Part shown: positions 11,322 through 53,006 of the stretch, in pieces
How the letters are laid out: each line of letters opens with the position of its first letter
How positions within the stretch are numbered: position 1 is the first letter of the stretch
Assembly: GCA_046160105.1 (NCBI GenBank)
Contig: JBJXGT010000010.1
Location: 42,776-106,775, forward strand
Origin: Gemmatimonadales bacterium
GTDB taxonomy: Bacteria > Gemmatimonadota > Gemmatimonadetes > Gemmatimonadales > GWC2-71-9
Direction of reading: 5' to 3'
Length of the DNA stretch: 64,000 bases
The notes under the pieces: generated by a model
Database searches by the model: none
The model's input: only the letters and a program-made list of their open reading frames with translations
Told to the model about the DNA's origin: nothing
Translations under genes and position numbers: made by a program

Positions 11322-12563
11322 TCAGCGGAGCGCGCGATTCACCAGTTGACGGAACTCGACCTCGATCGGGTAGCGCCCGAACGGTGAGAATTGGGTCAGG
11401 ACGAGCCCGATCAGCTGGGTATTCGGGTCGATGAAGAAGTAGGTATTGGCAATGCCGGCCCATGACGCGGTTCCATTGCCACCCCGGAGCGGGTCCTTCC
11501 CGTTGACGATCAGGTTGAACCCCAGCCCGAAGCCGGTCCCCTGAAGGACCTGGGGTCCCACCGCCGGGACCATCTCGCCGGCCAGCTGATTGCGCAGCAT
11601 CTCGACGACCGTGCCCGATTGGAGCACCCGAGCGCCGTCGAGTTCCCCGCCGTTCAGAATCATCTGGGCAAACCGCAAGTAGTCGGCTGCCGTGGACACC
11701 AGGCCACCGCCCCCGGAAAGCACCGCCGCCGGTCGAGTGTAGTTCCCGGTGTCGGGAGAATCGGCCAACACGAAGCGGCCGGGCGCGGGCAGGGCGTAGT
11801 GGCCGGTCAGCCGGCTTCGCTTGTCGGCCGGCACCTGGAAGAAGGAGTCCCTCATCTTGAGCGGGACGAAGATCCGCTCCTCGAAGAACCGATCGAGCGA
11901 CTGACCCGAGACCACCTCGACGATCCGGCCGAGGACGTCAGTGCTGTAACTGTAGCTCCAGACCTCTCCGGGGTGCCCGACAAGGGGCAACCCCGCCAGC
12001 TTGGCGATCAGGTCGGCGAGACTGGTCGGCGTCGGCATCGCCCGATAGAGCGAGTCGACCGGGGTCTGGCCGAAGAATCCGTAGGTGAGTCCGGAGGTAT
12101 GCCGGAGCAGATCCCGCACCGTCATGTGGCGCCGCGGAGGCACCAGTCCGTCACGAGTCCAGACTTTCACCCCGGCGAACTCGGGCAGGTGCTTGGCGAC
12201 CGGATCGTCGAGACCGAGCTTCCCGTCCTCGACCAAGATCATCACCGCCGTGCTGGTGATCGGCTTGGTCATCGAGTAGATCCGGAACAGATCGCTCGGC
12301 TCCATCGGATCCTTGGCCTCCACGCTCCGGAGACCGAACGCCTTCCAATGGGCGAGGCGGCCGTCCTTCGCCACCGCCACCACGATCCCCGCCAGTTTGC
12401 CACCCGTCACGTAGGCCCGCATCGCGGAGTCGACTCGGGCAAGACCGGCGGTCGACAGGCCCACCTTCTCGGGACGTTCGGTGGGCAGCCCTTGGGACCC
12501 GGCCGCCGGGGCCAGCAAGACAAGCAGCAACAGGGACGATCGAATGCCGGTCGCGACGGGCAT
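11322..12563 (-). CDS. secreted serine hydrolase, beta-lactamase-related (class C/PBP4-like) family
   Basis: Signal peptide MPVATGIRSSLLLLVLLAPAAG and the S-x-x-K motif YSMTKPITS. ATG at 12563 with GAGGAA upstream. The track start at 12611 is TTG. Confidence 0.8.
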   Translation of the reverse strand: MPVATGIRSSLLLLVLLAPAAGSQGLPTERPEKVGLSTAGLARVDSAMRAYVTGGKLAGIVVAVAKDGRLAHWKAFGLRSVEAKDPMEPSDLFRIYSMTKPITSTAVMILVEDGKLGLDDPVAKHLPEFAGVKVWTRDGLVPPRRHMTVRDLLRHTSGLTYGFFGQTPVDSLYRAMPTPTSLADLIAKLAGLPLVGHPGEVWSYSYSTDVLGRIVEVVSGQSLDRFFEERIFVPLKMRDSFFQVPADKRSRLTGHYALPAPGRFVLADSPDTGNYTRPAAVLSGGGGLVSTAADYLRFAQMILNGGELDGARVLQSGTVVEMLRNQLAGEMVPAVGPQVLQGTGFGLGFNLIVNGKDPLRGGNGTASWAGIANTYFFIDPNTQLIGLVLTQFSPFGRYPIEVEFRQLVNRALR

Positions 12564-12789
12564 CGGGGGTTCCTCGAGGGGGTGGGAGGGGTGGGTTGAG
12601 GCTATCGGCAAGGCGGCCCGACATCAAGGGCCGAGACCCAGACCACCCTCCGACTTTCCGACCGGCGTTCAATATCCCCTCAGCGTCGTAACGTTCCTCT
12701 CTTGCAGCAGTTTGGTTACCACCCCGCCGATCGGTTGCTCACCTTGGGCGGGTGCCGAGTTGCCCCGTCCCCGCCGAGGCGGCTACCCT

Positions 12790-13362
12790 ATGGTCATGCC
12801 GGAGACGATCCGCCGGTGGACCCGCGAGGAAGTGCTGACGTTGCCGGACGACGGCAACCGCTACGAGCTCATCGACGGCGAACTGCTGGTGAGCCCGTCG
12901 CCGCGGGGCCTCCATCAGCGGGCGGTCGTCGCGCTGTACGACCTGATCGGTCCGTACGTCCGCCGCCTCCGGATCGGCTCGGTGGGGCTGGCGCCGTCGG
13001 ACCTCGATCTCCGCAGCGAGCAGGTATCCCAGCCCGACCTCTTCGTCGTCCATCGCCAGCCCGATGGCAAGGAGCCGATCGACTGGCCCGACTACGGGAT
13101 CCCCTTCTTCATCGCCGAGGTCACCTCGCCGTCCACGGCCCGGTACGATCGGATCGTCAAGCGGCGCCGCTATCAGCGAAGCAGGGTGGCCGAGTACTGG
13201 ATCATCGATCCCGACGCCCGAGCGGTCGAGCGGTGGCGGCCCGACGACGCCCGCTCCGAGATCCTCGACGAGACGATCGTCTGGCACCCATCCGGAGCCA
13301 CCGAGGAGTTAGCGATCGACCTGCCGGCCTACTTCCGCCGGGTCTGGGCCGAGGAGGACTAA
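12790..13362 (+). CDS. Uma2-family (DUF820) endonuclease
   Basis: YELIDGELLVSPSP...QPDLFVV...PFFIAEVTSPSTARYDRIVKRRRYQRSRVAEYWIIDPDARAVERW fits the Uma2 pattern. ATG at 12790; the upstream part of ORF 12481.. is non-coding-like. Confidence 0.85.
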   Translation: MVMPETIRRWTREEVLTLPDDGNRYELIDGELLVSPSPRGLHQRAVVALYDLIGPYVRRLRIGSVGLAPSDLDLRSEQVSQPDLFVVHRQPDGKEPIDWPDYGIPFFIAEVTSPSTARYDRIVKRRRYQRSRVAEYWIIDPDARAVERWRPDDARSEILDETIVWHPSGATEELAIDLPAYFRRVWAEED

Positions 13363-17306: not shown

Positions 17307-18350
17307 TTACGCGGCCACCCGCAGGGCCAACCCCACGGGCAACATGAGCAACGGGGCAACTTCGTCGACGTTCATCTGATCGAAGACACCCTCGGCGACT
17401 TGAATCCGCTCGATCGGGTTGGCCAGCTGGACCGGCAGCTTGAGCCGATCGCTGAGCGCCTTGGCGAGCCCCGGAATCCGCGCCCCACCGCCCGACAGGT
17501 ACATCCGCGACAACCCGGCCGCCGACCGACTCGCGGTCTGGAGGAAAGCCGCCGCCCGCTCGATGCCCACGGCCAACTCTTCGCCCCGGCTCTGGAGGAA
17601 CGGCGTCAACACGTCGGTGACCTCGAAGCCCTGGAGAAGCTTCTGGGCCTCTTCGGCCGAGAGCCCCCGCTCCCGCTGGAGATCTTCCCTGAATCGACGA
17701 GTGCCAACCGGGAGGTCTCGGGTCAGCACCGGGACACCCTCGTCGAGAATGTTCACGTTGGTCAGCTCATGGCCGATGTTCACCAAACCGACCACGCCCT
17801 TCATCGCATCGGGGTAGTTGACCTCGAACGCGTTGTGCAGGGCGAACGCATCGACGTCGATGACCGACGGCTCGATGCCGATTTCCTTGAGGAGCGACAT
17901 CTTGGTTTCGACCAGCTCTCGCTTGGCCGCCACCAGGAGCACGGACATCTGGAGACCTTCGCTCTCGGGATCCAAGATCTGAAAGTCGAGCTCGACGTTG
18001 TCCATGTCGAACGGCACGTGCTGCTCCGCTTCCCAGCGAATCAGCTCCCGCGCCTCGCCCTCCTTCATCCGATCCATCGGAATCCGCTTGACGATCACGT
18101 CGCGACCGCCGACAGCGGTCACCACGTTCTTCGGCTTGATGCCCATGTCGGCGAACAGTCCCCGGATCGCCTCGGCGACGATGCCCGGATCCATGACTTC
18201 GCCTTCGACGATCGCATCGTCGACCACCGTGGCCATCGCCACCTTGGACAGGACCGGTTCTCCGGTCCCATGCGACACTACCGCAACCTTGATCAGGCCG
18301 CTGCCGATGTCGAGGCCGATTGTCGTGCGTGCGCGGCTAAAAAGTCCCAT
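17307..18350 (-). CDS. pilM: type IV pilus assembly protein PilM (actin-like ATPase fold)
   Basis: MGLFSRARTTIGLDIGSGLIKVAVV...YLSGGGARIPGLAKAL. ATG at 18350; the track start at 18368 is TTG. Confidence 0.9.
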   Translation of the reverse strand: MGLFSRARTTIGLDIGSGLIKVAVVSHGTGEPVLSKVAMATVVDDAIVEGEVMDPGIVAEAIRGLFADMGIKPKNVVTAVGGRDVIVKRIPMDRMKEGEARELIRWEAEQHVPFDMDNVELDFQILDPESEGLQMSVLLVAAKRELVETKMSLLKEIGIEPSVIDVDAFALHNAFEVNYPDAMKGVVGLVNIGHELTNVNILDEGVPVLTRDLPVGTRRFREDLQRERGLSAEEAQKLLQGFEVTDVLTPFLQSRGEELAVGIERAAAFLQTASRSAAGLSRMYLSGGGARIPGLAKALSDRLKLPVQLANPIERIQVAEGVFDQMNVDEVAPLLMLPVGLALRVAA

Positions 18351-18549
18351 AGTCCGCCCGAGTGCCAAGATGGTTTACAGTCACGCCAGGAGTAGCGCAA
18401 ACCTCTGTCAGTCACAGCGATCAACCCCCGATCGCCTTCCCTAAAGACTTACTCTGCAACAACTTGCAGAACTCTATCGACGGCGGCACCGACCGAATCG
18501 GTCGGCTTCTCGCGAGTCGACCCACTTTGCCCATCACTCGGTGTCGGGG

Positions 18550-18564
18550 GCAACCGCTATGCCA
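18550..18564 (-). promoter_or_regulatory. candidate sigma54 (-24/-12) promoter upstream of pilM
   Basis: The minus strand reads TGGCAT-agcgg-TTGC with correct GG-N10-GC spacing, about 200 nt upstream of the pilM ATG. Confidence 0.4.
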
Positions 18565-18713
18565 TCGCTGGCAGCCCCCTGCTGCTACTGGCATCGGCGC
18601 GTTTAACTCGTTATTCGACTTCAGTTTGGCGGTTCCAATCGCGCCCACTGGCTCCCCAGGCGACGTTCCAACCGTCGAAACTTTTCGCAAAGATCCGGTC
18701 GCCTGGCGAAGCG

Positions 18714-19145
18714 CTACTGGAAACCCGCCACCCAGGGTCTCCTGATCGGTACCGCGTACCGAGTGCTGTCAACGGGATTGACGTACACATGAACGATAAT
18801 GCCGGCGCGGGCCCGAGCCCGAGGCCGGCCCGCCGCGTCGCGAATTTCCGCGAAACCATCGAGGAGCCAGAGGTCGCCGCGAAGCCACTCGGCTCGGAGG
18901 CGCACGCTGGTCGCCGGTCGAGGCGACGCCACTCCGACGACGACCTGGTAGCCCGGGACGGCCCCGGCCGTCGAATCGAGCCAGCTGCCCGAGAGGGCCC
19001 CCACGACTCCGGCGCGGGCCGCGCCTTCAGCTGCCATGGCCAGGAACGCCTCCCGCGTTTGGCGGACACCCCCATCGCCAGCGGCCGCCGCCAACGCCGC
19101 GACCGCCGAGCCGAAACCGATCGCGATCAAGACGACGAGGATCAT
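18714..19145 (-). CDS. hypothetical membrane-anchored protein, possible PilX-like pilus component
   Basis: N-terminal hydrophobic helix MILVVLIAIGFGSAVAALAAAA without a G/FTLxE prepilin site. ATGA overlap with the PilW-like gene upstream. Confidence 0.45.
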   Translation of the reverse strand: MILVVLIAIGFGSAVAALAAAAGDGGVRQTREAFLAMAAEGAARAGVVGALSGSWLDSTAGAVPGYQVVVGVASPRPATSVRLRAEWLRGDLWLLDGFAEIRDAAGRPRARARAGIIVHVYVNPVDSTRYAVPIRRPWVAGFQ

Positions 19146-19984
19146 GGGACGTTGTTCAGCCGGAGGCGGAAACGCAAGCTATCGGCGGCGCCGGCCACCC
19201 GTCCGGGGCCGCTGGCCAACTCCCGATGGGTAACGGCCCGGATCGCCACGTCGAGACCCGCGGCGACCTGACCTGGCGCCCACGGCACCCCGAATCGGTC
19301 GACGGCGGCGAGCTCGAGACCGTTCGGGCCATTCAATCGGCCGGCCACGGGCTGGACCGTGGCGGCCGCCGAAACCGCCTCGACCCCAAACTGCCAGCCG
19401 GACCCGGAGAGGTAGGCCCGGGCATTGATCGTTTCGAAGAATCGGACGACCGCTCGGGTCGCCCCGGCCCGGTGAGCGGTGGCCGAGTCGAGCAGGGTCG
19501 TGAAGACGACCGCCGCTTCGCCGGTGGGACAGACCGCGGCGGCCGGCCCACTGAAAAGGGGAAGCGGCACCCAGGCGTCGATCGGCGCGGTGGAGTCGCC
19601 CGGGAGGTAGAGCAGGAGGCTGTCGCGGCTCGGATCCGGGATCCGGGCCCGATACTCGGGGTATCGGGCTAACGCGAGAGTCAGGCTGTCTCGCCCCAGC
19701 CGGCAGGCCACCAGGACGCCACGTGGCGCGCGATAGGTGACCGAGTTCGCCGCGACCAGCCGGAGGTCTTCCCCCGCCAAGGTGTCGTAGCCGATCGCGC
19801 CGAGTTCCCTTTCGAGGGCATGGGCCACGGTGGTCACGTTGGCGGTCATCCCGAGCCGTTCGCTCCGCTCCCGTCCGATGTGCTGGACCCGATTCGAGAG
19901 CTGGAAGCTCATCGTGAGGACCATCCCGCCCACGGTGATGACGAGGAGTACCTCGAGCAAAGTGAAACCGCGACGGCCGGTCAT
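19142..19984 (-). CDS. prepilin-type minor pilin (PilW-like)
   Basis: MTGRRG/FTLLEVLLVITVGGMVL prepilin cleavage/methylation motif. ATG at 19984 in an ATGA overlap with the preceding minor pilin. The 254-codon upstream extension in the track is rejected. Confidence 0.8.
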   Translation of the reverse strand: MTGRRGFTLLEVLLVITVGGMVLTMSFQLSNRVQHIGRERSERLGMTANVTTVAHALERELGAIGYDTLAGEDLRLVAANSVTYRAPRGVLVACRLGRDSLTLALARYPEYRARIPDPSRDSLLLYLPGDSTAPIDAWVPLPLFSGPAAAVCPTGEAAVVFTTLLDSATAHRAGATRAVVRFFETINARAYLSGSGWQFGVEAVSAAATVQPVAGRLNGPNGLELAAVDRFGVPWAPGQVAAGLDVAIRAVTHRELASGPGRVAGAADSLRFRLRLNNVP

Positions 19985-20349
19985 CGACAGGTCACCGCGG
20001 TGACGACCGTATCGACCATGGTTCGCCGGGCAAGGGCGGCTCGGGCTTCGATCGTGATGGTGGCCCCGACCGTGTCTCCCGTGACGATCCAGGCCAGGCC
20101 GATTCCCTCGACCGTGGTGGCGACACCGGCCGCCGGCAGGGCGCACGCCGGCGCCGCCTCGCGATAGGCGCGCTCCAGCTGAGCCGTTTGGCTTTCCACG
20201 GCGGCGACCATAGCGAGCCATCGGCGAGACATGCCAGTGACCTCCGCCGTCTGGGCGACGAGCTTGAGGAGTGCGGTGACCCCGATCGCGAAGGTGACCA
20301 CCGCGAGGAGGACCTCGATGAGGGTAAAGCCGGGGTGGCGACGTGGCAT
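19981..20349 (-). CDS. prepilin-type minor pilin (PilV-like)
   Basis: MPRRHPG/FTLIEVLLAVVTFAIGVTALL prepilin motif; 122 aa. Confidence 0.8.
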   Translation of the reverse strand: MPRRHPGFTLIEVLLAVVTFAIGVTALLKLVAQTAEVTGMSRRWLAMVAAVESQTAQLERAYREAAPACALPAAGVATTVEGIGLAWIVTGDTVGATITIEARAALARRTMVDTVVTAVTCR

Positions 20350-20457
20350 GCCCCAAGGTGGCGAGCCGACCGGCGAACCGGTTAACCAAACGTCCGCAGC
20401 GAGGACCATTTCGCCGCGGACGTCTCGATTCCCGTCCGGATCGACCCGCCGAATCGG

Positions 20458-21801
20458 TCAGGCCAGGCCGTATCGCCGGAGCTTGTAGAAGAGGGTCCGG
20501 AGGCTGATCCGGAGCAACCGAGCCGCTTCCCGCCGAGTGCCCCCGCAGGCGGCCAAGGCGCGGAGGATGATCTCCCGCTCGAAGGCTTCGACCTGGGGTT
20601 TGAGGGCGTACTCGCTGGCGCCGTTGCCGTTGGCCCGGCCCGCGCTGACCAGGACCGGGAAGTCGCTGCGGTCGAGCTTGCCCGAGGGACTCAGCACCGC
20701 GGCGCGTTCGACGACTTGGCGCAGTTCCCGGACGTTGCCTGGCCACGAGTAGCCGACCAGCGCCGACATTGCCTGGGGCGTAATGCTGATCGGCCGGGCG
20801 GTCTTCGAGGCCACCTGCTGGAGAAAGTGGGTGACCAGGGCTGGGATGTCGTCCCGACGATCCCGGAGGGCCGGCAGGTCGAGGGTGGTCATTCCGAGGC
20901 CTTTGGCGAGGTCGGGCTGGATCTTGCCGTCATTGAGCAGCCGATCGATCGCCATTTCAGTGGTCGCCATGATCCGGACGTCGTTGTCGACCACGGCGAC
21001 CGAGCCGGACTGCCGCCCGTTGCCTGGACGACCCGCGCCAAGGCGGGAGACCAGATAGGTCTGGCTTTCCCGGGTCAGGGCCTCGACTTCCTCGAGCAGA
21101 AGGGTCCCTCGGCTCGCCGACCGCCAGACGCTCTGCGGATCGGAGGGGCTCAGATTGGCCTCGCCGCCCGCGGCGGTGAAGAAATCAGGAGTCGCGGTGC
21201 AGTCGATCGCCACGAAAGCGCCGTCGCCGCGGCGGCTGAACCGGTGCATGGCCCGGGCGAGCAGCGCCTTGCCGGTGCCTCGCTCGCCGGTGATCAGGAT
21301 GGTCTGATCGCTGGCGGCGGCCCGGGCCGCGACCTCGAGGATCGAGCGCATCTTGGAATCTTCGGCCACCAGCATCGGCTCGAGACCCTTGGCGCCGATG
21401 GTGGCGCGGAGGGTGGCGACCTCGTGGCGGAGCCGTTCCCGCTCGTCGGCCTGGCGGAGGGCGAGCAACACCTCTTCGGCGATCGCCGGCTTCCTGAGAA
21501 ACCCGTCGGCGCCTTCCCGGAGGGCCGACGCGGCGGCGGCGGATTCGGTCGGACCACCGCAGACGAGCACGATCCCGGTCCCGCCGCCCGCCCGGTAGCG
21601 GCGGAGAAACGCCAGGCCACCGTCGTTGGGGAGCGCGAGATCGCAGACGACCGTCCGGATCCCACAGGCCTGCGCCTCGAGCAGGGCGGCCTCGGGATCG
21701 CGACGCGCGATCACTTCGTAGCCCACATCCTCGAGGGAGGGGGCGACGGCGTGTCGCAGCGAGTCGTCAGCGTCCAGCAGTAGTACGCGCATCGGGTTCA
21801 T
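20458..21801 (-). CDS. response regulator with a degenerate NtrC-type AAA+ domain and a Fis-type HTH
   Basis: Receiver (LLLDADD...VVCDLALP...FLRKP), AAA+ (ITGERGTGKALLARAMH...GNVRELRQVVERA) and HTH (GGTRREAARLLRISLRTLFYKLRRYG). The GAFTGA loop, the Walker B DE and the Arg finger are not conserved (see findings). Confidence 0.85.
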   Translation of the reverse strand: MNPMRVLLLDADDSLRHAVAPSLEDVGYEVIARRDPEAALLEAQACGIRTVVCDLALPNDGGLAFLRRYRAGGGTGIVLVCGGPTESAAAASALREGADGFLRKPAIAEEVLLALRQADERERLRHEVATLRATIGAKGLEPMLVAEDSKMRSILEVAARAAASDQTILITGERGTGKALLARAMHRFSRRGDGAFVAIDCTATPDFFTAAGGEANLSPSDPQSVWRSASRGTLLLEEVEALTRESQTYLVSRLGAGRPGNGRQSGSVAVVDNDVRIMATTEMAIDRLLNDGKIQPDLAKGLGMTTLDLPALRDRRDDIPALVTHFLQQVASKTARPISITPQAMSALVGYSWPGNVRELRQVVERAAVLSPSGKLDRSDFPVLVSAGRANGNGASEYALKPQVEAFEREIILRALAACGGTRREAARLLRISLRTLFYKLRRYGLA

Positions 21802-21873: not shown

Positions 21874-22266
21874 TCAGGAGCAGACGATTTGCCCATCAAC
21901 GGTGCTTGCCGCACCGCCTCCCACCTGGACGGTACACTCGTCGAGCGCCGAGGTGATCGTGCTGTTCGTAATGGTCGCCGTGTACCCGGAAACGGATGGC
22001 GAAATGGCCGCCGCGTTGCCGCCCGAGAACGTGTAGTTGGTCGACGACTGAAGCTGTGCCAACGTCGCGAAGGTGCCGAAATCGGCCCAGTATGCTTCCT
22101 GCGCCGTCATCACGTTGCGAAGATCGGACCGGATCGAAGCCAGCTTCGACTTGTCCTTGGTGGCCGCGAACTTCGGGATCGCGATCGTGGCGAGAATGCC
22201 GATGATCACCACGACAATGAGGAGTTCGATCAGCGTGAAGCCGGCGGTGTGTCGGTTGGTCTTCAT
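21874..22266 (-). CDS. pilA: type IVa major pilin PilA (copy 1)
   Basis: MKTNRHTAG/FTLIELLIVVVIIGILATIAIPKFAATKDK. C-terminal Cys pair (DECT...IVCS). SD AAAGGAGGG. Confidence 0.9.
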   Translation of the reverse strand: MKTNRHTAGFTLIELLIVVVIIGILATIAIPKFAATKDKSKLASIRSDLRNVMTAQEAYWADFGTFATLAQLQSSTNYTFSGGNAAAISPSVSGYTATITNSTITSALDECTVQVGGGAASTVDGQIVCS

Positions 22267-22369
22267 GGTGGTCGCCCTCCTTTCCGTCGTTGGGTTGGTA
22301 GCCAGGCGCGAAACGGGGCGGGGACTCTCGAGAGCCGAGCCACCGCCCCATCGTCGCGTCAGTTCACGC

Positions 22370-22753
22370 TTACGAGCAGACGATGACGCCGTCGAGCGTC
22401 GAAGCGGCACCCGCGCCGACCTGCGTGGTGCACTGGTCGATCGCCGAGGTGATCGTGCTGTTGGTGATCGTGACGGTGAAGCCAGACGCGGCCGGACCGA
22501 CACCAGCGGTGTTGCCCGAGGACAGCGAGAAGTTGCTCGCGGACTGGAGGTTCGCCAGCGTACCATAGGTGGCGAAGTCGGAGAAGTACGCCTCCTGCGC
22601 CGTCATGAGATTCCGGACGTCGGTCTTGACCGAAGCCAGTTTCGCCTTGTCCTTGGTCGCCGCGAACTTCGGAATCGCGATCGCCGCCAAGATGCCGATG
22701 ATCACAACCACGATCAACAGCTCGATGAGAGTGAAGCCCTTACGATTGCCCAT
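22370..22753 (-). CDS. pilA: type IVa major pilin PilA (copy 2, paralog)
   Basis: MGNRKG/FTLIELLIVVVIIGILAAIAIPKFAATKDK. C-terminal Cys pair (DQCT...IVCS). SD GGAGG. Confidence 0.9.
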   Translation of the reverse strand: MGNRKGFTLIELLIVVVIIGILAAIAIPKFAATKDKAKLASVKTDVRNLMTAQEAYFSDFATYGTLANLQSASNFSLSSGNTAGVGPAASGFTVTITNSTITSAIDQCTTQVGAGAASTLDGVIVCS

Positions 22754-22829: not shown

Positions 22830-22845
22830 AGCAACGATGGTGCCA
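22830..22845 (-). promoter_or_regulatory. sigma54 (-24/-12) promoter of pilA copy 2
   Basis: The minus strand reads TGGCAC-catcg-TTGCT, an exact match to the TGGCAC-N5-TTGCW consensus, 77 nt upstream of the ATG at 22753. Confidence 0.8.
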
Positions 22846-23012
22846 GGTGTACCCATTGCGCGTAAGGCGTTGCAAATAAACGCGTTACCGTCCAACTGCA
22901 GGCCGTACTGCAGGCCCTGGTCAAGACGGGAGCCTCGGAGTTTGCAAGCGATGACGTTGGCCGGGCCTGTTTCCGAAGGGCATACTTCTGGCGAACCCCC
23001 GGCGCGGCGCCT

Positions 23013-24704
23013 ATGAGAACCCCACCCCGCGCGACCCTCGCCTCGTTCGCCCTGGCCATCCTCGGCTTCAGTGCCGCGGTGACCAGTCTGGGCAACGGGT
23101 ACACCCAGGACGACCAGCCCATCATCGAGCGGAACGACCGGGTCCATTCGCTGGCCGAGCCGGGGCGGTTCTTCGCCGAGTCTTATTGGCCGGAGCCCTA
23201 CGACCCCGCCCTGTACCGGCCGCTCGCCTCGATCGGCTACGCCATTCAATGGGTCGCGGGTGGCGGGGCCCCCCTGGTGTTCCGGCTGGTCAGCATCGCC
23301 CTCGTCGTGGCCGCTGGGATAGCCGTTTTTCGCCTTGGCCGACGGGTTCTGCCCGAGCCGGTGGCGTGGCTGATGGCCGCTGTGTTCGTGGTCCACCCCG
23401 TCCACGTGGAGGCCGTCGCGGCGGCGGTCAATCAGTCGGAGCTGGTGGTTGGCCTGATCGCCGCGGTGCTCGTCGCCGGATACCTGGATCAGCGACATCA
23501 CTCCACCGCCGGCCGCGGGTTCGTCATTCGGCTCTCCCTCCTGTTCCTCACCGCCCTCCTGTTCAAGGAGAGTGCCGCGGTCCTGGTCGGCATCGTCCTG
23601 GCCGCCGAGATCATCCTGGTTCGGGACCCGGCCCCGCTCGCGGCCCGACTCGCCCGGATCCGTCCGACCATCCTAGGCCTTCTCCTCGGGGTGGTCGTCT
23701 TCATGGCGGTCCGGGCCGCGGCCCTTGGCGGGAACCTCCTCGGGACCTTCGTCGCGGAAGGCCTGGAGAACCTCTCGCTGGGCCAGCGAGCGGTGTTGAT
23801 GCTGGGCGTGGTACCCCATTGGTTCCGGCTCCTCCTCTGGCCCGCTCATCTTCGGGCCGACTACTCGCCCCGGGAAATCGAGCCGACGGCGATCTGGGGC
23901 CCGGCCCAGTCTCAGGGTGCGGTTCTCCTCCTGATCACCCTCGCGTTGGTGTGGTACTGCTGGCGCCGGGCGCCGGTGGTGGCGTTCGGACTGGTCTGGG
24001 CGGGGATCGCGATCTTCCCGGTGAGCAACGTCCTGGTTCCGACCGGGGTGGTGCTCGCGGAGCGGACCCTGTTCTTCCCGAGCATCGGGATGATGCTGGC
24101 GATCGGCGGGGGCCTGGCGGCGCTCTGGCGCCATCCGGCCACCCGCCCAGGGTTGCGGCTGGTGGTGGCCGGCGCGGCGCTGGTCGTCATCGGGTTGGGC
24201 GCGAGCCGCAGCGCCAGTCGGTTCCGGGTCTGGCGGAACAACGAGATCTACTGGCGTCAGGCGGTGATCGACGCTCCTCGGTCCTATCGGGCCGGGCACG
24301 CCTACGCGCAGCTACTTTTCGCCACCGGTGATCGCGCCGGCGGGGAGCGCGAGTTTCGCCGCGCGGTGGCTCTCTACCCCAAAGCGTTGACCGTCTATAA
24401 CGCCAATGCCAATCGGCTCCGGCTCGCGGGGATGTGCGCCGACGCGGTGGTGTTTTATGATCGAACCCTGATCGTCGAGCCCCAGGCCGTCGCGGCCCGA
24501 AGCGGGATGATCGCCTGCTTGCTGTACGACGGCCGCTACGCCGAGGCCAGCGCGGCCGCCAAGGACGGCGGGCGGATCGCTCCTCGGCCCGGGTTGGCGA
24601 AACTGTTCAGCCGTTTTCAGCAGGTGGCCGATAGCGCAGGCGCCGTCGGAGCGCCGGCGGGCACCGTCCGGTTCAGCATCCGGGCGAGCGACACCCTTCC
24701 CTGA
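23013..24704 (+). CDS. TMTC-like polytopic membrane protein (DUF1736-type GT-C candidate) with C-terminal TPR repeats, paralog 1
   Basis: About 10 predicted TM helices. First-loop YTQDDQPIIERN and the VHPVHVEAVAAAVNQSELV motif. C-terminal TPR-like AYAQLLFATGDRAGGEREFRRAVALYP. Confidence 0.7.
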   Translation: MRTPPRATLASFALAILGFSAAVTSLGNGYTQDDQPIIERNDRVHSLAEPGRFFAESYWPEPYDPALYRPLASIGYAIQWVAGGGAPLVFRLVSIALVVAAGIAVFRLGRRVLPEPVAWLMAAVFVVHPVHVEAVAAAVNQSELVVGLIAAVLVAGYLDQRHHSTAGRGFVIRLSLLFLTALLFKESAAVLVGIVLAAEIILVRDPAPLAARLARIRPTILGLLLGVVVFMAVRAAALGGNLLGTFVAEGLENLSLGQRAVLMLGVVPHWFRLLLWPAHLRADYSPREIEPTAIWGPAQSQGAVLLLITLALVWYCWRRAPVVAFGLVWAGIAIFPVSNVLVPTGVVLAERTLFFPSIGMMLAIGGGLAALWRHPATRPGLRLVVAGAALVVIGLGASRSASRFRVWRNNEIYWRQAVIDAPRSYRAGHAYAQLLFATGDRAGGEREFRRAVALYPKALTVYNANANRLRLAGMCADAVVFYDRTLIVEPQAVAARSGMIACLLYDGRYAEASAAAKDGGRIAPRPGLAKLFSRFQQVADSAGAVGAPAGTVRFSIRASDTLP

Positions 24705-24713
24705 CGAGGCACC

Positions 24714-26396
24714 ATGCCGCGCTGGCTGCTCATCGGTTCGCTGGTATTACTGGCGGTGGGGTCGTCGATCACCAACCTCTCCAACCAGTACGCCCAGGAT
24801 GACATGGCGGTCATCCAGAAGAACCCCACCGTCCACACCTTGGCGGAGCCGTGGCGGTTCTTCACCGAGTCCTACTGGCCCAAGCCGTTCGCTCCCGAGA
24901 TGTTCCGCCCGCTCTCCACCACCGGATTCGCCGTCCAGTGGGTGATCGGCGGGGGCCGGCCCTGGGTCTACCGGGTCACCAGCATCCTGCTGTACACCGC
25001 GGCCACCCTGGCGGTCTTTCATCTGGCCGGCTTGCTGTTGCCCCCGTTGGCCGCCTGGCTGGTGGGCGCCTTCTTCGCGGTCCACCCGGTCCACGTCGAA
25101 TCGGTGGCGGTCGGGGTCAACCAGGCCGAGATCATGGTCGGGCTGCTGGCGACGTTGCTGATCATCCGGTATCTCGGCATCCGGCGCTCCGGGACGATCA
25201 CCGTCAAGGACGGCACGTCGGTATTCGGGCTCTACCTGACGGCGCTGATGTTCAAGGAGAGCGGGATCGTCCTGATCGGCCTCCTGGTGGCGGCCGAGTT
25301 GACCGTGGTCAGGAGCGATCGTTCTCTCTGGCGGCGGCTGATCGAGATTCGCCCGCTCCTGCTGGTGATGTTGCTCGGCGCCGCCACCTTCTTCGCGTTG
25401 CGGACCTTCGCGCTCGAGGGCAACGCCAGGGGGACCTACACGACCGAGGCCCTCGAAGGGCTTTCGATGGGCGGCCGCGCGATGACGATGCTCACGGTCG
25501 TGCCCCATTGGTTTCGCCTCCTGTTGTGGCCCGCCCATCTGCGCGGTGACTATGCCCCCAGGGAGATCGACACCTCGACCACCTGGGGCATCGGCCAGAC
25601 CCAGGGCGCTCTGCTGCTCGTGCTCACGGTCATGATGGCGATCGCCGCGTGGCGGAAGTCACCGGCGGTTCTTTTCGGCCTCGCCTGGACCGCGATCGGG
25701 ATCTTCCCGGTCAGCAACGTCCTGGTCCCGACCGCGATCGTGGTCGCCGAGCGGATTCTCTTCCTCCCGAGCATCGGCATGATGTTGGTCGTGGGCGGGC
25801 TGGCCGCCCCCGCGATCGACTGGCTTCGCCAGCGGCCCCGCTCGTTTCACCTGGTGGCGGGCGCCGCCGTCGGGGCGGTCCTGGTGATGGGCCTGACCCG
25901 GAGCGCGAGCCGGCAGCGGGTCTGGAAGGATCAGTTCACCTTCTGGCACCAGACCACCATCGACGCTCCGCTGTCCTACAAGGCGCACCACGCCCTGGCC
26001 TCGCTGCTGTTCCCGGTCGGGGCTCGGTCGTGGGCCGAGCGGGAGTACCGCACCGCGATCGCGCTGTATCCGCGCCGGTGGGGCGCCTACTTCGACCTCG
26101 GCAACAAGCTCCGGCTCGAAGGCCAGTGCGAGCAGGCCGTCTGGCAGTATCGGCAGGCGCTTCGGATCGAGCCGGAGCTCGAAAGCGCTCGGACCAGCGT
26201 GATCGCCTGTTTCCTCAACATGGGGCGATACGGCGACGCCGTGGCCGAATCCCGCGAGGCGATGAGCTACGCGACCCGACCGGCTCGGCTGATGCTCTTT
26301 CAGCGGCTTCTGGTGATCTCCGACAGCGCCGCCCGCGCCAAGGCGGCACCCGGCACGGTCCGGATTTCCATCGCGGCGCGCGACACGACCCCGTGA
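24714..26396 (+). CDS. TMTC-like polytopic membrane protein with C-terminal TPR repeats, paralog 2
   Basis: Collinear with paralog 1: YAQDDMAVIQKN, VHPVHVESVAVGVNQAEIM, PHWFRLLLWPAHLRGDYAPREI. Confidence 0.7.
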   Translation: MPRWLLIGSLVLLAVGSSITNLSNQYAQDDMAVIQKNPTVHTLAEPWRFFTESYWPKPFAPEMFRPLSTTGFAVQWVIGGGRPWVYRVTSILLYTAATLAVFHLAGLLLPPLAAWLVGAFFAVHPVHVESVAVGVNQAEIMVGLLATLLIIRYLGIRRSGTITVKDGTSVFGLYLTALMFKESGIVLIGLLVAAELTVVRSDRSLWRRLIEIRPLLLVMLLGAATFFALRTFALEGNARGTYTTEALEGLSMGGRAMTMLTVVPHWFRLLLWPAHLRGDYAPREIDTSTTWGIGQTQGALLLVLTVMMAIAAWRKSPAVLFGLAWTAIGIFPVSNVLVPTAIVVAERILFLPSIGMMLVVGGLAAPAIDWLRQRPRSFHLVAGAAVGAVLVMGLTRSASRQRVWKDQFTFWHQTTIDAPLSYKAHHALASLLFPVGARSWAEREYRTAIALYPRRWGAYFDLGNKLRLEGQCEQAVWQYRQALRIEPELESARTSVIACFLNMGRYGDAVAESREAMSYATRPARLMLFQRLLVISDSAARAKAAPGTVRISIAARDTTP

Positions 26397-28042
26397 CCAG
26401 CGGCGCTCCTCGCCGTTACGCCGCGGGGATCTACCTGTGGCTCGCCGGGCTCGGAGTGATCGCCGCCGGCCGCGCGCTCGGCAACGGCTTCGCGTTCGAC
26501 GACGTGCCGATGATCGCCGAGAACGCCCAGGTCCAATCCCTCGCCCCCCCGTGGGTCTACGCGCAGCAGAGTTACTGGCCTCCCAAGAACCTCGGCGACG
26601 CCTACCGGCCCTGGACGGTGTGGTGGTTCGCGATCCAATGGGCCCTGGGCGACGGGGCGCCCTGGTTGTTCCACCTCGGCAACCTGGTGCTCACCCTCGC
26701 GGTGATCGGGCTCGTCTACCGGCTCCTGGCCGAGTGGCTGCCTCCGATCGGCGCGGCCGCCGGGGCGGCGATTTTCGCGGTCCATCCGGTCCACGTCGAG
26801 GCCAACGCCAACGTGGTCGGTCAGGGCGAGCTATGGATGGTGGGCTTCGTGACGGCCGGCATCCTCTGGTACCTGCGGGCGCGGCGGCGCGGCGTGTGGT
26901 CGGGTACCGATCGGTTGATCATCGCCCTCTGCCTGGTGTTGGCCGCGGCATCGAAGGAACAGGGGATCGTGTTGCCGGCCTTGCTGGTCGCGATCGAATG
27001 GTGCCTCCCCGACGATGAGCCGCTGACCCGTCGCCTCCGCCGCCTCGCGCCGTTGTACCTCCTGCTGGCGGTCGTCGGCCTCGGTTTTCTGGCGGGTCGA
27101 TACGCCGTCCTCGGCGACATGGGCGGGGGGCCGCCGGCCGCGGGACTGGAGGGCCTTTCACTCGCCGAGCGCGCCCGGGTCATGCTGCCGCTGGCGGCCG
27201 ACTGGGCCCGCCTCCTGGTCTGGCCCCGCGACCTCCTCGCCCAGTACAGCCCGCCGGCGTTCGGGCTGCCGGACGGGTTCGGGTGGGCGGAACTGCTCGG
27301 GGCGGGCATCCTGGTGGGGGCCGGCGGCGCCCTCCTGGCCCGGCGGCGCCACCCCAGGCTCACGTTAGGCATCGCCTGGATCCTGATCGGCCTGCTGCCG
27401 GTGAGCAACCTGTTGTTTCCGACCGGGGTGCTGATCGCCGAGCGGACCCTCTACCTGCCGAGCGTCGGGATCGCGGTGATGGCTGGGGCGGTGGTGGCGT
27501 GGGGCGGGGCGGACCCTCGCCGTCTCGGAGCGACGATCGCGATCACCGTCGCCGTGGTCGCGGCGGGGGCGGCCCGGTCGTGGTCGCGCCAGGCGGTCTG
27601 GCGCGACAGCCCGACCTTGTTCGCCCAGACCATCGTCGACGCGCCGCGAAGCTATCGGGGCTATCTGGTCCGGGCCAAGGAGGTGGCCCGACGCGACGCC
27701 CCCGACGAGGCCGCCCGGATGTACCAGGACGCCGCTGCGTTGTACGAGGGCGATCCCCGGGTGTTCGAAGAGTGGGGTCAGCTGGAACGGGCCGCCGGGC
27801 GGTGCGATCAGGCGATCCCGATCTTCTCGCGGGGGCTCGGGCACCATCCCCGGGCCACCGTCCTTCGAAGCCGACTGTTCGAGTGTCTGCTGACGGTGGG
27901 CGACACCACCGGAGCCGTCGAGGTCGCCCAGATCGGGCTGGGACTCGGGATGACCGAGTTTACTGCGCCGCTGGCCCGGGCAACCAGAGGCCGAGCCGTC
28001 CGGCCCGACCCGCCGCCCGCCACGCCCCAAACGGACCGTTAG
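26393..28042 (+). CDS. TMTC-like polytopic membrane protein with C-terminal TPR repeats, paralog 3
   Basis: GTG start at 26393 in a GTGA overlap with the paralog 2 stop. FAFDDVPMIAEN, VHPVHVEANANVVGQGELW. The 3' end overlaps the convergent gene by 83 nt. Confidence 0.65.
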   Translation: MTSGAPRRYAAGIYLWLAGLGVIAAGRALGNGFAFDDVPMIAENAQVQSLAPPWVYAQQSYWPPKNLGDAYRPWTVWWFAIQWALGDGAPWLFHLGNLVLTLAVIGLVYRLLAEWLPPIGAAAGAAIFAVHPVHVEANANVVGQGELWMVGFVTAGILWYLRARRRGVWSGTDRLIIALCLVLAAASKEQGIVLPALLVAIEWCLPDDEPLTRRLRRLAPLYLLLAVVGLGFLAGRYAVLGDMGGGPPAAGLEGLSLAERARVMLPLAADWARLLVWPRDLLAQYSPPAFGLPDGFGWAELLGAGILVGAGGALLARRRHPRLTLGIAWILIGLLPVSNLLFPTGVLIAERTLYLPSVGIAVMAGAVVAWGGADPRRLGATIAITVAVVAAGAARSWSRQAVWRDSPTLFAQTIVDAPRSYRGYLVRAKEVARRDAPDEAARMYQDAAALYEGDPRVFEEWGQLERAAGRCDQAIPIFSRGLGHHPRATVLRSRLFECLLTVGDTTGAVEVAQIGLGLGMTEFTAPLARATRGRAVRPDPPPATPQTDR

Positions 28043-29774
28043 GCACCCAGTCGGCCGGTTGGTCGATCGCCACCAGCGCGCAGGGCGCGGCTGGGTTGGT
28101 GGCGAGACGGCCGGTGGCGTTCTCGACCAGCACCTGCTCGAAGCCAATCGCCCCGCCACCCGAGCGACCGAGCGCCCAGAGGGGATACTCCCAGGAGTCG
28201 TAGCCGGCCTTGACCGCGACCCGGAGGCAGCGCTCCGCCCGGAGCCGGTCGATCAGCCCGCGGTAGTGCGCGAGTTCCTCGGGGCGACGGGCAAAGTACT
28301 GGGCCGGCCGAGGCGTCGAGAAGACCGATCCGTCGCCAATCAACGGCCGGGTGAGATTAGCGATCAGCGGGGGCACCGCGATCACCCCGGCCAGCACGAG
28401 GATCAGCCTGACCCACCGATCACCCCAGCGATGGGCCGCCGCCGCGACCAGCGGAACCGCCAGAACCAACCCGGGGAGCTGGAGTCGGGCCCCGAACGGC
28501 TGCCACCGGACCAGCGCGGCGAACAACAGCAGCGATCCCAGTGACGCGACCAGGTACCAGCGAAGCGCGGGTTCGGCCACCCGCCAGCCCCGGACCAGGG
28601 TTCCGAGCGCCACCAGCCCGAGCAAGAAGAGCAGTGGCGACCCGGCCAGGTCTTCGTCGGTCGACCAGGGAATGATCCGGAGTCCGCCGAAGTACGGATA
28701 GGCCGCCTTCGGATCGACGCCGAGCGCGGCATGGGCCAGTGCGAGGCCGCCGGTGGTCACCCCATTGACCGTCTCATTCGGCGTCCCCCAGTTGAGCGAC
28801 GCATTGGCGATCAGGTTCGCCACCACCACCGTCGGGCCGGCGCTCGGCGGGCGAAGCAGGCGCTGGACTTCGACGTCGCCGAGCGGCGAACCATAGGTCG
28901 AGAAGTTCCGGACCATCCACGGGGCGTTGAGGAGACCGGCGACCCCGGCCGCCACGACCACCGCTCGGAGCGCCGCCGGCCCCGATCGATGGCGCCGGAC
29001 CCCGAGCGCCATCACCAGGAGCCACGGGAGCCCGAAGACCAGCGCGGTCCCTTTGGTACCGATCCCCAAACCAAGACTCGCGCCCAGCCACCCGGGGAGC
29101 GCCGCCGCGACCGGACCGCCCCACGCCGCAAGGGCGAAGGCCGCGGTGGCCGCGACCCAGAGCGCCGCCACCAGATCGTTCTGGGTCGAGGTGGCCTGAA
29201 GGACCACCGCGGGGGCGGTGCCGACGAGCGCCATCGCGGTCCAGGTCGCCGGGACGCCGCCCCCGAGGAGTCGAGTGATCCGGGCCGCCGCCACCGCCGC
29301 GCCTAACGCCGCCGCCCACTGGACCAGATTGACCAGCCGATCGCCGCCAGCCAGGGCCACGCTCAGGGTGACGAGAAACTCGGCGAACGGCGGCTGCCAC
29401 ACCTGGCGGTCGACCGCGGTGGGGAAATGCGCCACCGAGCCGCGGGCCAGCCACTGCTCGACCCGAGGCAGGTGATAGGTCATGCTGTCCCAGGTGTTGG
29501 GCGCGGCCGCGAGGGCCACGGCGAGGGTCACCAGGGCGACGACGGCCACGATCCACGACGCGGCCCCGGCCAGTTCCCTCGGTCGAGGCCACGACTTCGC
29601 CCGCCAGAGGAACCGTCCCGTCACCCCGATCGCGGCGAGTCCCACCGCGGCCGCCGACCCCGTCCCGAGCGCGCCGACCGCCGAGATCGCCTCGATCCCG
29701 ACCACCGCCGCGACCCCGCCGGCCACCGCGCCGCGGAGGATCGCGTCGGTTCGCGACGGGGCGGCGTCGGTCAC
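27960..29774 (-). CDS. polytopic membrane protein, PMT_2/ArnT-like GT-C glycosyltransferase candidate (604 aa)
   Basis: GTG at 29774 in a GTGA overlap with the upstream stop. NTWDSMTYHLPRVEQWLA first-loop motif, STQNDLVAALW, and more than 10 hydrophobic helices. Confidence 0.6.
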   Translation of the reverse strand: MTDAAPSRTDAILRGAVAGGVAAVVGIEAISAVGALGTGSAAAVGLAAIGVTGRFLWRAKSWPRPRELAGAASWIVAVVALVTLAVALAAAPNTWDSMTYHLPRVEQWLARGSVAHFPTAVDRQVWQPPFAEFLVTLSVALAGGDRLVNLVQWAAALGAAVAAARITRLLGGGVPATWTAMALVGTAPAVVLQATSTQNDLVAALWVAATAAFALAAWGGPVAAALPGWLGASLGLGIGTKGTALVFGLPWLLVMALGVRRHRSGPAALRAVVVAAGVAGLLNAPWMVRNFSTYGSPLGDVEVQRLLRPPSAGPTVVVANLIANASLNWGTPNETVNGVTTGGLALAHAALGVDPKAAYPYFGGLRIIPWSTDEDLAGSPLLFLLGLVALGTLVRGWRVAEPALRWYLVASLGSLLLFAALVRWQPFGARLQLPGLVLAVPLVAAAAHRWGDRWVRLILVLAGVIAVPPLIANLTRPLIGDGSVFSTPRPAQYFARRPEELAHYRGLIDRLRAERCLRVAVKAGYDSWEYPLWALGRSGGGAIGFEQVLVENATGRLATNPAAPCALVAIDQPADWVPNGPFGAWRAAGRAGRLGLWLPGPAAQ

Positions 29775-31753
29775 GGCGTCAGCCCGAGAATCGAATCGCG
29801 AGACACCGGGACGAACGACGGCGCGGCCTCGGCGGCCAGGCGGCGCAGCAGGTAGACGGCCTTCGACGGCTCCCGCTCGAGGATCACCCGATTCCGCCAC
29901 TGGAGGTCCCGGACGAAGACCAGATCCGCGCGGCGGCTGAGCACCGTGGGCGCCAGCAGCGCGGTGCCGGCCCGATCCTCGTTGATCCGGGCAGCGCAAC
30001 GCTGGTCGTAGCGAGCGCCGTCGAGCACCCGCTCGGAGGTGTCGGGCGAGAACGGCGACGCCACCAGTCGGGCCGAGTCGCTCATCAGCGGCACCAGTCG
30101 TTCCAGGCCGCCCGGCCGGCCGGCTCGCTCGAGGGAATCGATCGCGTGGTCGAGGCGACAGCTGTCGACGTTCCGATAGAAGCGTTCCGCTTGGGGACGG
30201 GTGGCGCCCAGCGCCCAGAGGCGGGCCAGGAGCTGCGAGCCCCACGACTCGCGCACCAGGACCACCGCGTCGCGAATCCCGGCCGCGGTCGCCGCCCGAT
30301 CGGCGTCGAACCGGAGGGCCGGTTGGAACGCGGCGTGCTGGCCGGCCCGGACCGGAATCCCGATCGCCAGGGCACCTAACGTCGCGAAACCAAGCAGGGC
30401 CGCCGCGGCGCGGCGAGGGCCATCGCCGAACCCGGCGCCGACCGCCGACGGGAGCCGGGCCGTCCACAAGGTCACCAGCGGCACCAGCGGGTAGACGAAC
30501 CGCGGCCCCAGGAAGAAGCCGTCGTGCCAGTAGGCGAAGTACCCGAGGAGCAGCGCGCCGGCCGACACCAGCAGGTAACGGTCGATCGGCCCCCATCGGG
30601 GAACCAGGATCAAGGCGAGGCCCGCGGCCAGCAGTCCCGGCACCGGCGCCTCGAAGAGGTAGACGTTCAACCGAAGCAGGTAGAGCGCGACCAGCTCGAA
30701 ACCCCGACTCGGGGTATGGGCCGGGCCGTACGGCGCCGGGTGAAAGCCGAGCCCGACGTTAGGTCCCCACAAGAGCTGGTAGCCCGATTGCCAGGCCGAC
30801 CCCGTCGTCGCGGCGTTCACCGCCAGCATCCCCGCGAGCGGCACCAACGCGGCCACCGCCATCGCGACCACGAACCGGCCCCGCCCGCCGGCCCGGGCCC
30901 ATCCGAGCACCCAGATCGCCGCCGGCAGCCCGAATGCGAGCGCGTCCAGCGGCCGGGTGATCGCTGCCATTCCGAGCGCGAACCCCGCCCCGACCGCGGC
31001 ACCCATCCCGGCACCCGCCCGAAGCGCCAGCCAGGCCACCAACGCCACCAGGATCCAGAGCAACGCGGCCGAGTGGTTCATCTGCGACCCCGCCATGAAG
31101 GCGACGAACGGGGCCAGGGCGAACAGGAGCAGCGCCCCACCCCGAACCGACGGACGCTCCTCGAGGCGCACCAGCACCCGTCCCCAAGCCGCGACCGTGG
31201 CCGCGCCCACCAGCGGCCCGATCAGCCACGCCCGACCGACCCACTCCCCGACGGCCAGCAGGGCCGGCCAGCCCGGCGGGAAATGGCCGAACCACCGGCC
31301 GCCGTGCTCGACGAGATGGAGGACGCTGCGAAAGGCCGGGTCCGAGTCGACCGGCAGCCAGAGGCGGCCGGCGGTGTAGCTGCGCGCCTGGAAGAGGAAG
31401 ACGATTTCGTCGATCAGGATCGGCCGGGTCTGGAAGATGCCGACGGCGACCGCGAGATAAGCGGCCAGGGCGAGGAACGTCACCAGCGCGAGCGCCGGCG
31501 GGCGGATCGGATCGAATCTTCCCAGCAAGCCCGCCAGCGCGCCGGTCCGCCACCGGGCGGGCGCCCGGCCGCCGAGCCATCCCACCAGCACCGCCCCGGC
31601 GAGGCAGCCGCCACCGAGGACGAGCCAGTTCGTCGCCACCACGCCGTACCAGGGCGTGGCCCGTTCCGATGGAATCCAATTGGCGATGGGGAGCAGACTC
31701 ACCGCGAGCAGCGCGGCGATGACGAGGCGCGCGATCGACCGCGCCGTCGTCAC
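29771..31753 (-). CDS. polytopic membrane protein, PMT_2/ArnT-like GT-C glycosyltransferase candidate (660 aa) with a C-terminal soluble domain
   Basis: GTG at 31753 in a GTGA overlap with the GT2 stop. [22 protein letters not shown] acidic loop, [14 protein letters not shown], then a ~190 aa non-hydrophobic C-terminus. Confidence 0.6.
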
Positions 31754-49933: not shown

Positions 49934-49963
49934 AGTGACCTCGTGTTTCGACGTCGTGCGACG

Positions 49964-52887: not shown

Positions 52888-53006
52888 GGGCCTTCGGACC
52901 ACTCCAAGGGACAAGGGAACCGATCCCCTTTTGCAAGGAATTGCGCCGAAAAAAACGGGTCGATTTCCTGGCCGGTCGGCACCCCCCGCTGACTACATCC
53001 AAAGCT

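Follow-up and report, generated by a model that had tools for sequence, protein, structure and literature searches.

A Gemmatimonadota-specific family of atypical enhancer-binding proteins encoded within the type IV pilus locus

The 64,000-nucleotide stretch of contig JBJXGT010000010.1 discussed here (the window), from the Gemmatimonadales genome assembly GCA_046160105.1, carries on its minus strand a type IV pilus locus in the order PilS, PilR, an island with a glycosyltransferase and PMT_2/TPR genes, two pilins, a second NtrC-type regulator, minor pilins, and pilMNOPQ. That second regulator, at positions 20458 to 21801, is the focal gene of this study. It has the build of an enhancer-binding protein of bacteria (bEBP or, for the wider class of homologues, EBP) and no GAFTGA loop. 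We put at roughly 60% the probability that it encodes a functional, atypical EBP homologue that is independent of sigma-54 and dedicated to the pilus locus. The family to which it belongs is new, well delimited, and specific to Gemmatimonadota, and it falls within the already known class of atypical EBPs. The parts of the gene are listed below, with residues numbered from M1 at 21801.

20458 to 21801, minus strand: focal gene, NtrC-family atypical EBP, 447 amino acids from the ATG at 21801
21448 to 21789, minus strand: receiver domain, residues about 5 to 118, with D54 and K104 present
20863 to 21366, minus strand: AAA+ core, residues about 146 to 313, with Walker A GERGTGKA at 21265 to 21288 and Asp200 at the Glu-switch
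21124 to 21186, minus strand: L1 loop region DFFTAAGGEANLSPSDPQSVW, residues 206 to 226, without GAFTGA (alignments, regular-expression search, and structure model)
21076 to 21102, minus strand: Walker B LLLEEVEAL, with E237 and E238 (alignments)
20890 to 20928, minus strand: Arg-finger region GKIQPDLAKGLGM, with Q295, K300, and G301 (alignments)
20461 to 20544, minus strand: Fis-type helix-turn-helix (HTH) GGTRREAARLLRISLRTLFYKLRRYGLA (Pfam and alignments)

The probable true start of the gene is M4 at 21792, giving 444 amino acids, as indicated by the starts of orthologues and the NCBI call; P0001, a 444-residue protein from a Gemmatimonadales metagenome-assembled genome (MAG), is 100% identical to the focal protein and likewise begins at the second Met of the open reading frame (ORF). 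The GC content at third codon positions (0.86) is as expected for coding DNA in this window, whose overall GC content is about 68%. Pfam recognizes four domains in the product: Response_reg (46 bits, versus 103 bits in PilR), Sigma54_activat (PF00158; 81 bits against a cutoff of 20.2, versus 238 bits for the paralogue at 33184 to 34563, the canonical PilR), AAA_lid_14 (87 bits), and HTH_8. No NCBIfam equivalog scored above its cutoff for the focal protein; the TyrR model reached 138 bits, which is under its cutoff.

Motifs were placed by BLASTP against the paralogue, to which the focal protein is 31% identical over its full length, by HMMER against the NtrC1 and NtrX structures, and by regular-expression search. 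All three agree with the first-pass annotation, an earlier reading of this DNA by eye, that the GAFTGA motif is missing: there is no GAFTGA-like string anywhere in the focal protein, and its L1 loop reads DFFTAAGGEANLSPSDPQSVW where the canonical paralogue has ELFGHVKGSFTGAVRDKQGLF. The other substitutions tabulated in that annotation (Walker B LLLEEVEAL and Arg-finger region IQPDLAKGLGM) reappear in the alignments without shifts. In Walker B, LLLEE stands opposite FFMDE, so that the catalytic Glu is kept and the only change is Asp to Glu; in the Arg-finger region, GKIQPDLAKGL stands opposite GRFRSDLFYRL, and both canonical arginines of FRxDLxxRL are replaced (Q295 and G301). Neither a GAFTGA nor a DE Walker B emerges at a shifted position, the sole shift being a basic residue, Lys or Arg, directly ahead of the second Arg-finger position in the subclade of the focal protein: K300 immediately precedes the lost position in the focal protein, the two closest relatives have Arg there (ARGL), and the rest of the family reads AQRL. 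One substitution was absent from the earlier table, namely, that the Asn of the Glu-switch is replaced by Asp200. The elements said to be retained are indeed seen in the alignments: Walker A GERGTGKA (K178), the sensor II Arg (R358, in GNVREL), the receiver residues D54 and K104, and the Fis-type HTH. With EBP architecture, GAFTGA lost, and a non-consensus Walker B, the focal protein fits the literature definition of an atypical EBP, and motifs in this state indicate that it cannot be a conventional sigma-54 activator.

How much of this is peculiar to one genome? Among the matches listed, we took the 120 closest homologues, each at least 60% identical to the focal protein, and GAFTGA occurs in none of them (0/120), nor in a sister family that is described below. 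The L1 segment varies in length among these 120 and is deleted in 12 of them. Walker B reads EE in most of the family (a few members have ED or DE), the Glu-switch position is Asp in nearly all of the 120, and every one of them keeps Walker A and the sensor II Arg (R358), with GERGTGKA varying at its third residue only. As for the Arg fingers, the second Arg is kept in most orthologues and both are kept in many; the first is R or Q, and FRxELLQRL is the commonest form. On these alignments, the absence of GAFTGA and an EE Walker B characterize the family as a whole, and the loss of both arginines is confined to the focal genome and its nearest relatives.

The distribution of variation within the focal family is uneven. 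Mean pairwise identity is 0.88 in the Walker A half of the AAA+ domain, 0.86 in the linker from the receiver to the AAA+ domain, 0.86 in the HTH, and 0.83 in the lid; it is 0.36 in the L1 loop and 0.22 in the pre-sensor-I loop. In canonical bEBPs, L1 and pre-sensor-I are the parts that contact sigma-54 and link ATP hydrolysis to it. As judged from the alignment, these two loops are the only parts of the focal family that are freed from constraint. The reading of the first-pass annotation as to function, a sigma-54-independent DNA-binding regulator, is reasonable, because GAFTGA is gone in all members and the coupling loops are the least conserved segments, and precedents for it are known. Its description of the AAA+ core as “decayed,” in contrast, is contradicted by the fixed genomic slot of the gene and by a ratio of nonsynonymous to synonymous substitution rates (dN/dS) of 0.11 to 0.14 overall against two orthologues. 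By domain, the same comparisons give 0.19 to 0.26 for the AAA+ domain and 0 to 0.02 for the HTH. The gene is intact, under purifying selection, and not decaying.

The family is also well separated from other bEBPs. A profile of 24 members run against 1.84 billion representatives retrieved just one 50%-identity cluster, which scored 777 bits; the match after it reached 395 bits, and ordinary bEBPs level off at about 260 to 280 bits. A scan of species-representative genomes placed the family in about 45 species, all of them Gemmatimonadota MAGs. Four proteins (P0121, P0270, P0271, and P0273), 41 to 47% identical to the focal protein, form the sister family. They occupy the same slot in the pilus locus, in a block that comes straight after pilS-pilR; they share the EE Walker B and have the same recognition helix as the focal family (SLRTLFYKLRRYGL), and the conserved Lys of their receiver is lost. 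PilR is 83 to 92% identical across lineages where the focal and sister families share only about 43%; therefore, at the level of sequence identity, the atypical regulator is evolving much faster than PilR, the HTH excepted. The focal protein is likewise 42 to 45% identical to two further bEBP-family proteins of Gemmatimonadales: P0278, in which GAFTGA is present, and P0313, where a search for GAFTGA-like strings gave none. A recent duplication of PilR as the source of the focal gene was considered and ruled out, given identities of about 30% to PilR versus 42 to 45% to P0278 and P0313.

An AlphaFold2 model of the focal protein, built on the family alignment, confirms the fold and matches this picture (mean predicted local distance difference test [pLDDT] score, 73.8; predicted template modeling [pTM] score, 0.49). 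The segments modeled with low confidence, which appear disordered, are L1 (residues 212 to 218) and pre-sensor-I (256 to 271); pLDDT also falls below 50 at the junction of the receiver and AAA+ domains (129 to 148) and in the linker preceding the HTH (383 to 396). The model predicts a 30-residue helix that leads out of the receiver's end and into the linker, in the direction of the AAA+ domain. In Foldseek searches, the top matches were NtrX (the best), NtrC1 in its inactive state, NtrC4, LuxO, and VpsR, and FleQ was also among the matches.

The receiver raises the question of whether the protein answers to a kinase. It has Cys81 at the Thr/Ser position and an atypical acidic pocket, LLLDADDS; across orthologues, D54 never varies, K104 is replaced by N, Q, or R in some, and the first position of the pocket is D, A, or G. 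No histidine kinase gene adjoins the focal gene in the window or its counterparts in the seven related loci with listed genes, the nearest kinase being PilS, the partner of PilR. Because there is no adjoining cognate kinase and the receiver is partly degenerate, we regard control of the focal protein by phosphorylation as doubtful.

The genes around the focal gene, which the argument from here on requires, are as follows.

34560 to 36317, minus strand: PilS-like histidine kinase (6TM_PilS, PAS, HisKA, HATPase_c)
33184 to 34563, minus strand: PilR-like sigma-54 activator of the canonical type, with GSFTGA, a DE Walker B, and the two Arg fingers
22370 to 22753, minus strand: major pilin gene (pilin 1)
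21874 to 22275, minus strand: second pilin gene, 73% identical to pilin 1
19981 to 20349, minus strand: PilV-like minor pilin with N_methyl motif; probable start at the second Met of the ORF
19142 to 19990, minus strand: PilW-like minor pilin with N_methyl motif
18714 to 19145, minus strand: hypothetical protein with an N-terminal hydrophobic segment, third of the minor-pilin set
17307 to 18350, minus strand: pilM, first gene of pilMNOPQ, which extends to 13458

This gene order agrees with the location given in the first-pass annotation, between pilA and the minor pilins and directly ahead of the PilV-like, PilW-like, and hypothetical genes. The canonical PilS/PilR pair lies 11 kb from the focal gene, and pilB, pilT, and pilC are at 48725 to 52914. 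Nearly every related locus with enough flank repeats this arrangement, with one to four pilin genes leading to the regulator, three minor pilins behind it, and then pilMNOPQ (in one locus, L014, about 5 kb is inserted behind the regulator), and PilR is encoded in or near the same locus in every case looked at. The gap between the second pilin and the regulator is 72 bp to the ATG at 21801, or 81 bp to the probable start at 21792; in most orthologous loci, the regulator follows the last pilin by 2 to 90 bp.

The locus holds a set of conserved, putative regulatory elements, some of them found by phylogenetic footprinting of related loci.

22831 to 22845, minus strand: predicted sigma-54 promoter TGGCACCATCGTTGC ahead of the major pilin gene, shared by about 30 loci
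22933 to 22948, minus strand: upstream element CTTGCAAA(C/G)TCC(G/A)AGG, a candidate enhancer about 105 bp upstream of the -24 box
22312 to 22352, minus strand: GC-rich hairpin resembling a terminator, behind the stop codon of the major pilin (-32.5 kcal/mol, z = -3.25)
18550 to 18564, minus strand: second predicted sigma-54 promoter TGGCATAGCGGTTGC, about 195 bp upstream of pilM, found in 41 loci
18383 to 18469, minus strand: candidate pilM operator/promoter, consisting of the palindrome CTGCAAGTTGTTGCAG (18454 to 18469) and a sigma-70-like promoter

The pilin promoter, the window's only perfect match to TGGCAC-N5-TTGC, is located 77 bp ahead of the ATG of the first pilin gene; about 30 loci keep it in the form TGGCACCA(A/T)CGTTGC, and the sister loci have TGGCACACTCGTTGC. 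Its counterpart ahead of pilM has the consensus TGGCA(T/C)AGSSGTTGC over 41 loci, and an element containing TTGC(A/G)AA, about 105 bp further upstream, is common to both sigma-54 promoters. The pilM leader (18350 to 18700) holds tandem sigma-54 and sigma-70-like promoters with conserved blocks in between. The sigma-70-like promoter is CTGACA (18406 to 18411), 17 nt, and TGGCGT (18383 to 18388) here and TTGACA-17-TAGCGT in most loci; the palindrome differs by subclade, being CTGCAAGTTGTTGCAG here and TGCTTGA-N7-TCAAGCA elsewhere.

No sigma-54 promoter was found before the regulator or the last pilin gene in any locus. Because the regulator has no sigma-54 promoter of its own and the gap ahead of it is short, it is probably co-transcribed with the second pilin, and its transcript could come from read-through or from an unrecognized promoter. 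The hairpin after the major pilin has a weak U-tract, and all related loci have an equivalent; it probably acts as an attenuating terminator, fixing the level of the major pilin relative to the genes downstream. On the other side of the regulator, six loci (L001, L019, L025, L028, L038, and L042) carry 7- to 8-nt tandem repeats just after the stop codon, with units that vary by locus (e.g., GGCAGTG, GGTAAGGC, and AGAGGCTA); the window has none. In L002, L035, L037, L038, and L042, there is a GC hairpin with ATTTTCGTTTC behind it, ending about 12 nt short of the start codon of the pilV-like gene, and in other loci, including the window (about 20350 to 20365), a conserved CTTGG..CATG motif with no Shine-Dalgarno sequence precedes that gene.

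We propose a mechanism in which the ability to engage sigma-54 has been permanently lost and the protein has been kept to regulate the type IV pilus locus by binding DNA. In this model, the focal protein would still bind nucleotide, hydrolysis would be dispensable, and DNA would be bound by a dimer or a higher oligomer via the invariant HTH. We posit that the expression of pilus genes would then be modulated without remodeling of the sigma-54 holoenzyme. Two targets can be envisaged, the sigma-70-like promoter and palindrome ahead of pilM and the conserved elements that lie upstream of the two sigma-54 promoters. One or the other is most likely the target, and the protein may act there as an activator or as a repressor.

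Several observations weigh against this reading. The palindrome ahead of pilM varies between two subclades while the recognition helix is invariant; therefore, the tie between this palindrome and the focal regulator is weakened. Nor can the footprinted upstream elements be attributed to the focal protein over PilR; all of them could be PilR sites. Nucleotide binding, which we consider probable, is a suggestion drawn from motif conservation. Given the EE Walker B and the second Arg in most orthologues, many members of the family may hydrolyze ATP slowly. Finally, the model of the focal protein is only moderately confident and is silent on oligomers and ligands.

If the protein does not act on promoters in its own right, might it act on PilR? 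The first-pass annotation had raised an anti-activator in mixed oligomers with the canonical protein as its second option. In such an arrangement, the focal protein would throttle PilR either through mixed, unproductive rings or by competing for enhancers at the pilin and pilM promoters. Read-through from the PilR-dependent pilin promoter would supply a hydrolysis-impaired decoy that limits PilR, and the result would be a negative feedback loop on the pilin and pilMNOPQ. The layout of the locus lends itself to this idea: the regulator, with no sigma-54 promoter of its own, sits close behind the last pilin in most loci, downstream of the sigma-54-driven major pilin and of a hairpin that looks leaky, a PilR gene is always found in or near the locus, and both sigma-54 promoters share the TTGC(A/G)AA element. 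Most orthologues keep the second Arg finger, a residue that operates in trans at the interfaces between subunits. However, the focal protein is no recent duplicate of PilR, with P0278 and P0313 being its closer relatives, and its recognition helix (LRTLFYKLRRY, versus PSTLYRKLSRY in PilR) suggests different DNA sites. A literature search found no case in which a bEBP is naturally poisoned through hetero-oligomers with a GAFTGA-less paralogue. We consider such interference with PilR unlikely, and the feedback loop in particular would be equally improbable. To our knowledge, no natural dominant-negative EBP paralogue of this decoy type has been described.

A second alternative, which we hold to be about as doubtful, is that the Walker A pocket and the lid have been repurposed to sense a nucleotide or a second messenger, such as cyclic di-GMP (c-di-GMP) or ADP/ATP, much as in FleQ and VpsR. 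Such a sensor would tie pilus gene expression to the surface or biofilm state. The Walker A half and the lid are among the best-conserved parts of the protein though the catalytic and coupling elements are relaxed, and both VpsR and FleQ appear among the structural matches; according to the literature, VpsR, an EBP that lacks GAFTGA and whose Walker B departs from the consensus, requires c-di-GMP and has no ATPase activity. Against this, no diguanylate cyclase or phosphodiesterase gene is conserved beside the focal gene in the loci examined. FleQ has an LFRS motif, and the corresponding segment ahead of the AAA+ domain of the focal protein (LEPMLVAED, compared by eye) appears to lack its Arg, which also counts against a sensor.

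That the gene is a degenerating paralogue whose function is gone (as a Sigma54_activat score one-third that of the paralogue, the loss of both canonical Arg-finger positions in the focal genome, and a frameshifted-looking orthologue might suggest) is very improbable, and we reject it on the strength of dN/dS and conserved synteny, the gene having a near-invariant HTH, an intact frame, a fixed position in at least 45 species plus the sister family, and Walker A, sensor II, lid, and linker segments that are better conserved than the remainder of the protein. The orthologue just mentioned, at 6001 to 7282 of L048 in one MAG, matches in two overlapping frames, reflecting either a frameshift (and possibly a pseudogene) or an assembly error.

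Sigma-54-independent action of the focal protein would not be without company. EBP homologues that lack GAFTGA are reported in the literature to work at sigma-70 promoters or to repress, in some cases without ATP hydrolysis; Rhodobacter capsulatus NtrC needs to bind ATP and not to hydrolyze it, and VpsR needs no ATP at all. Vibrio cholerae VpsR has the same receiver-AAA+-HTH order as the focal protein, no GAFTGA, and a non-consensus Walker B; it works with sigma-70 RNA polymerase and has no ATPase activity, features that the focal protein may share. They differ in that the Walker B of VpsR is ND rather than EE, VpsR depends on c-di-GMP, its targets are biofilm polysaccharide genes and not a pilus locus, and identity in the structural alignment is only about 23 to 24%. 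Brucella abortus NtrX, the best structural match and the third-best sequence match among solved structures, likewise has a receiver-AAA+-HTH order and a shortened L1 without GAFTGA and acts as a repressor according to the literature; unlike the focal protein, it keeps a DE Walker B (HMMER alignment) and has no link to pili. NtrX is said to appear specific to the Alphaproteobacteria.

The NtrC proteins of R. capsulatus and Caulobacter are also NtrC-family response regulators from which L1 and GAFTGA have been deleted, and they act at sigma-70 promoters. However, they belong to NtrB-NtrC pairs, require phosphorylation, and control a nitrogen-metabolism regulon, whereas the focal gene has no kinase gene beside it, codes for a receiver that is partly degenerate, and belongs to a pilus locus. 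Escherichia coli TyrR, Pseudomonas putida PhhR, R. capsulatus HupR, and Myxococcus xanthus HsfA are listed in the literature as further sigma-54-independent EBP homologues with an altered GAFTGA; TyrR and PhhR have ACT/PAS sensory domains where the focal protein has a receiver, and none of the four is embedded in a pilus locus. A literature search for atypical EBPs tied to type IV pili found no paper.

Within pilus systems, the nearest comparisons are with regulators that come with kinases. The canonical PilR of the window (33184 to 34563) shares its domain order and its locus with the focal protein and regulates type IV pilus genes; it differs in having GSFTGA, a DE Walker B, both Arg fingers, and an adjacent PilS kinase. 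M. xanthus PilR2 is, like the focal protein, a second NtrC-family regulator within a type IV pilus cluster beside PilS/PilR, and it is reportedly required, independently, for pilus-dependent motility. Unlike the orphan focal protein, it comes with a kinase of its own, PilS2. Myxococcus PexR was dropped as a comparator, being a canonical, GAFTGA-bearing bEBP. The partner kinase of NtrX, the best structural match, is NtrY.

The remainder of the window adds context of its own. Between pilR and the pilins, positions 23013 to 33111 hold large membrane proteins with TPR or PMT_2-like regions and a family 2 glycosyltransferase, and this island may be a pilin glycosylation module; related loci add methyltransferases to it, and in the sister loci L058 and L059 pilS-pilR directly adjoin a pilin gene. 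Beyond pilMNOPQ come a Uma2-family endonuclease gene (12481 to 13362, plus strand), a beta-lactamase-fold gene (11322 to 12611, minus strand), and then aroC. Since aroC directly follows pilQ in five related loci with listed genes, the Uma2/beta-lactamase-fold pair (11322 to 13362) looks like a lineage-specific insertion. The stretch from 36394 to 64000 is ordinary, with genes for a cytochrome c, a P-type heavy-metal ATPase, pilC/pilT/pilB, an M28 peptidase, LptF/G, a TonB-dependent-like outer-membrane barrel, and an amino-acid permease. An Rfam scan of the whole window gave no matches.

What does this family mean for the field? The short list of EBP homologues that are independent of sigma-54 would gain a phylum-specific family, and the public labels carried by such proteins, “sigma-54-dependent transcriptional regulator” or “AtoC,” are very probably wrong. 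The family displays an evolutionary signature of the parts that remodel sigma-54, in that L1 and pre-sensor-I vary to an extreme degree and the Walker A, lid, linker, and HTH segments have hardly changed. Its setting is unusual, a family seemingly blind to sigma-54 inside a locus driven by predicted sigma-54 promoters and equipped with a canonical PilS/PilR pair. As such, it offers a natural test case for the purpose of a retained, non-catalytic AAA+ domain, be it oligomerization, ligand sensing, or interference with a canonical activator, and it shows how two NtrC-type regulators may share control of one machine.

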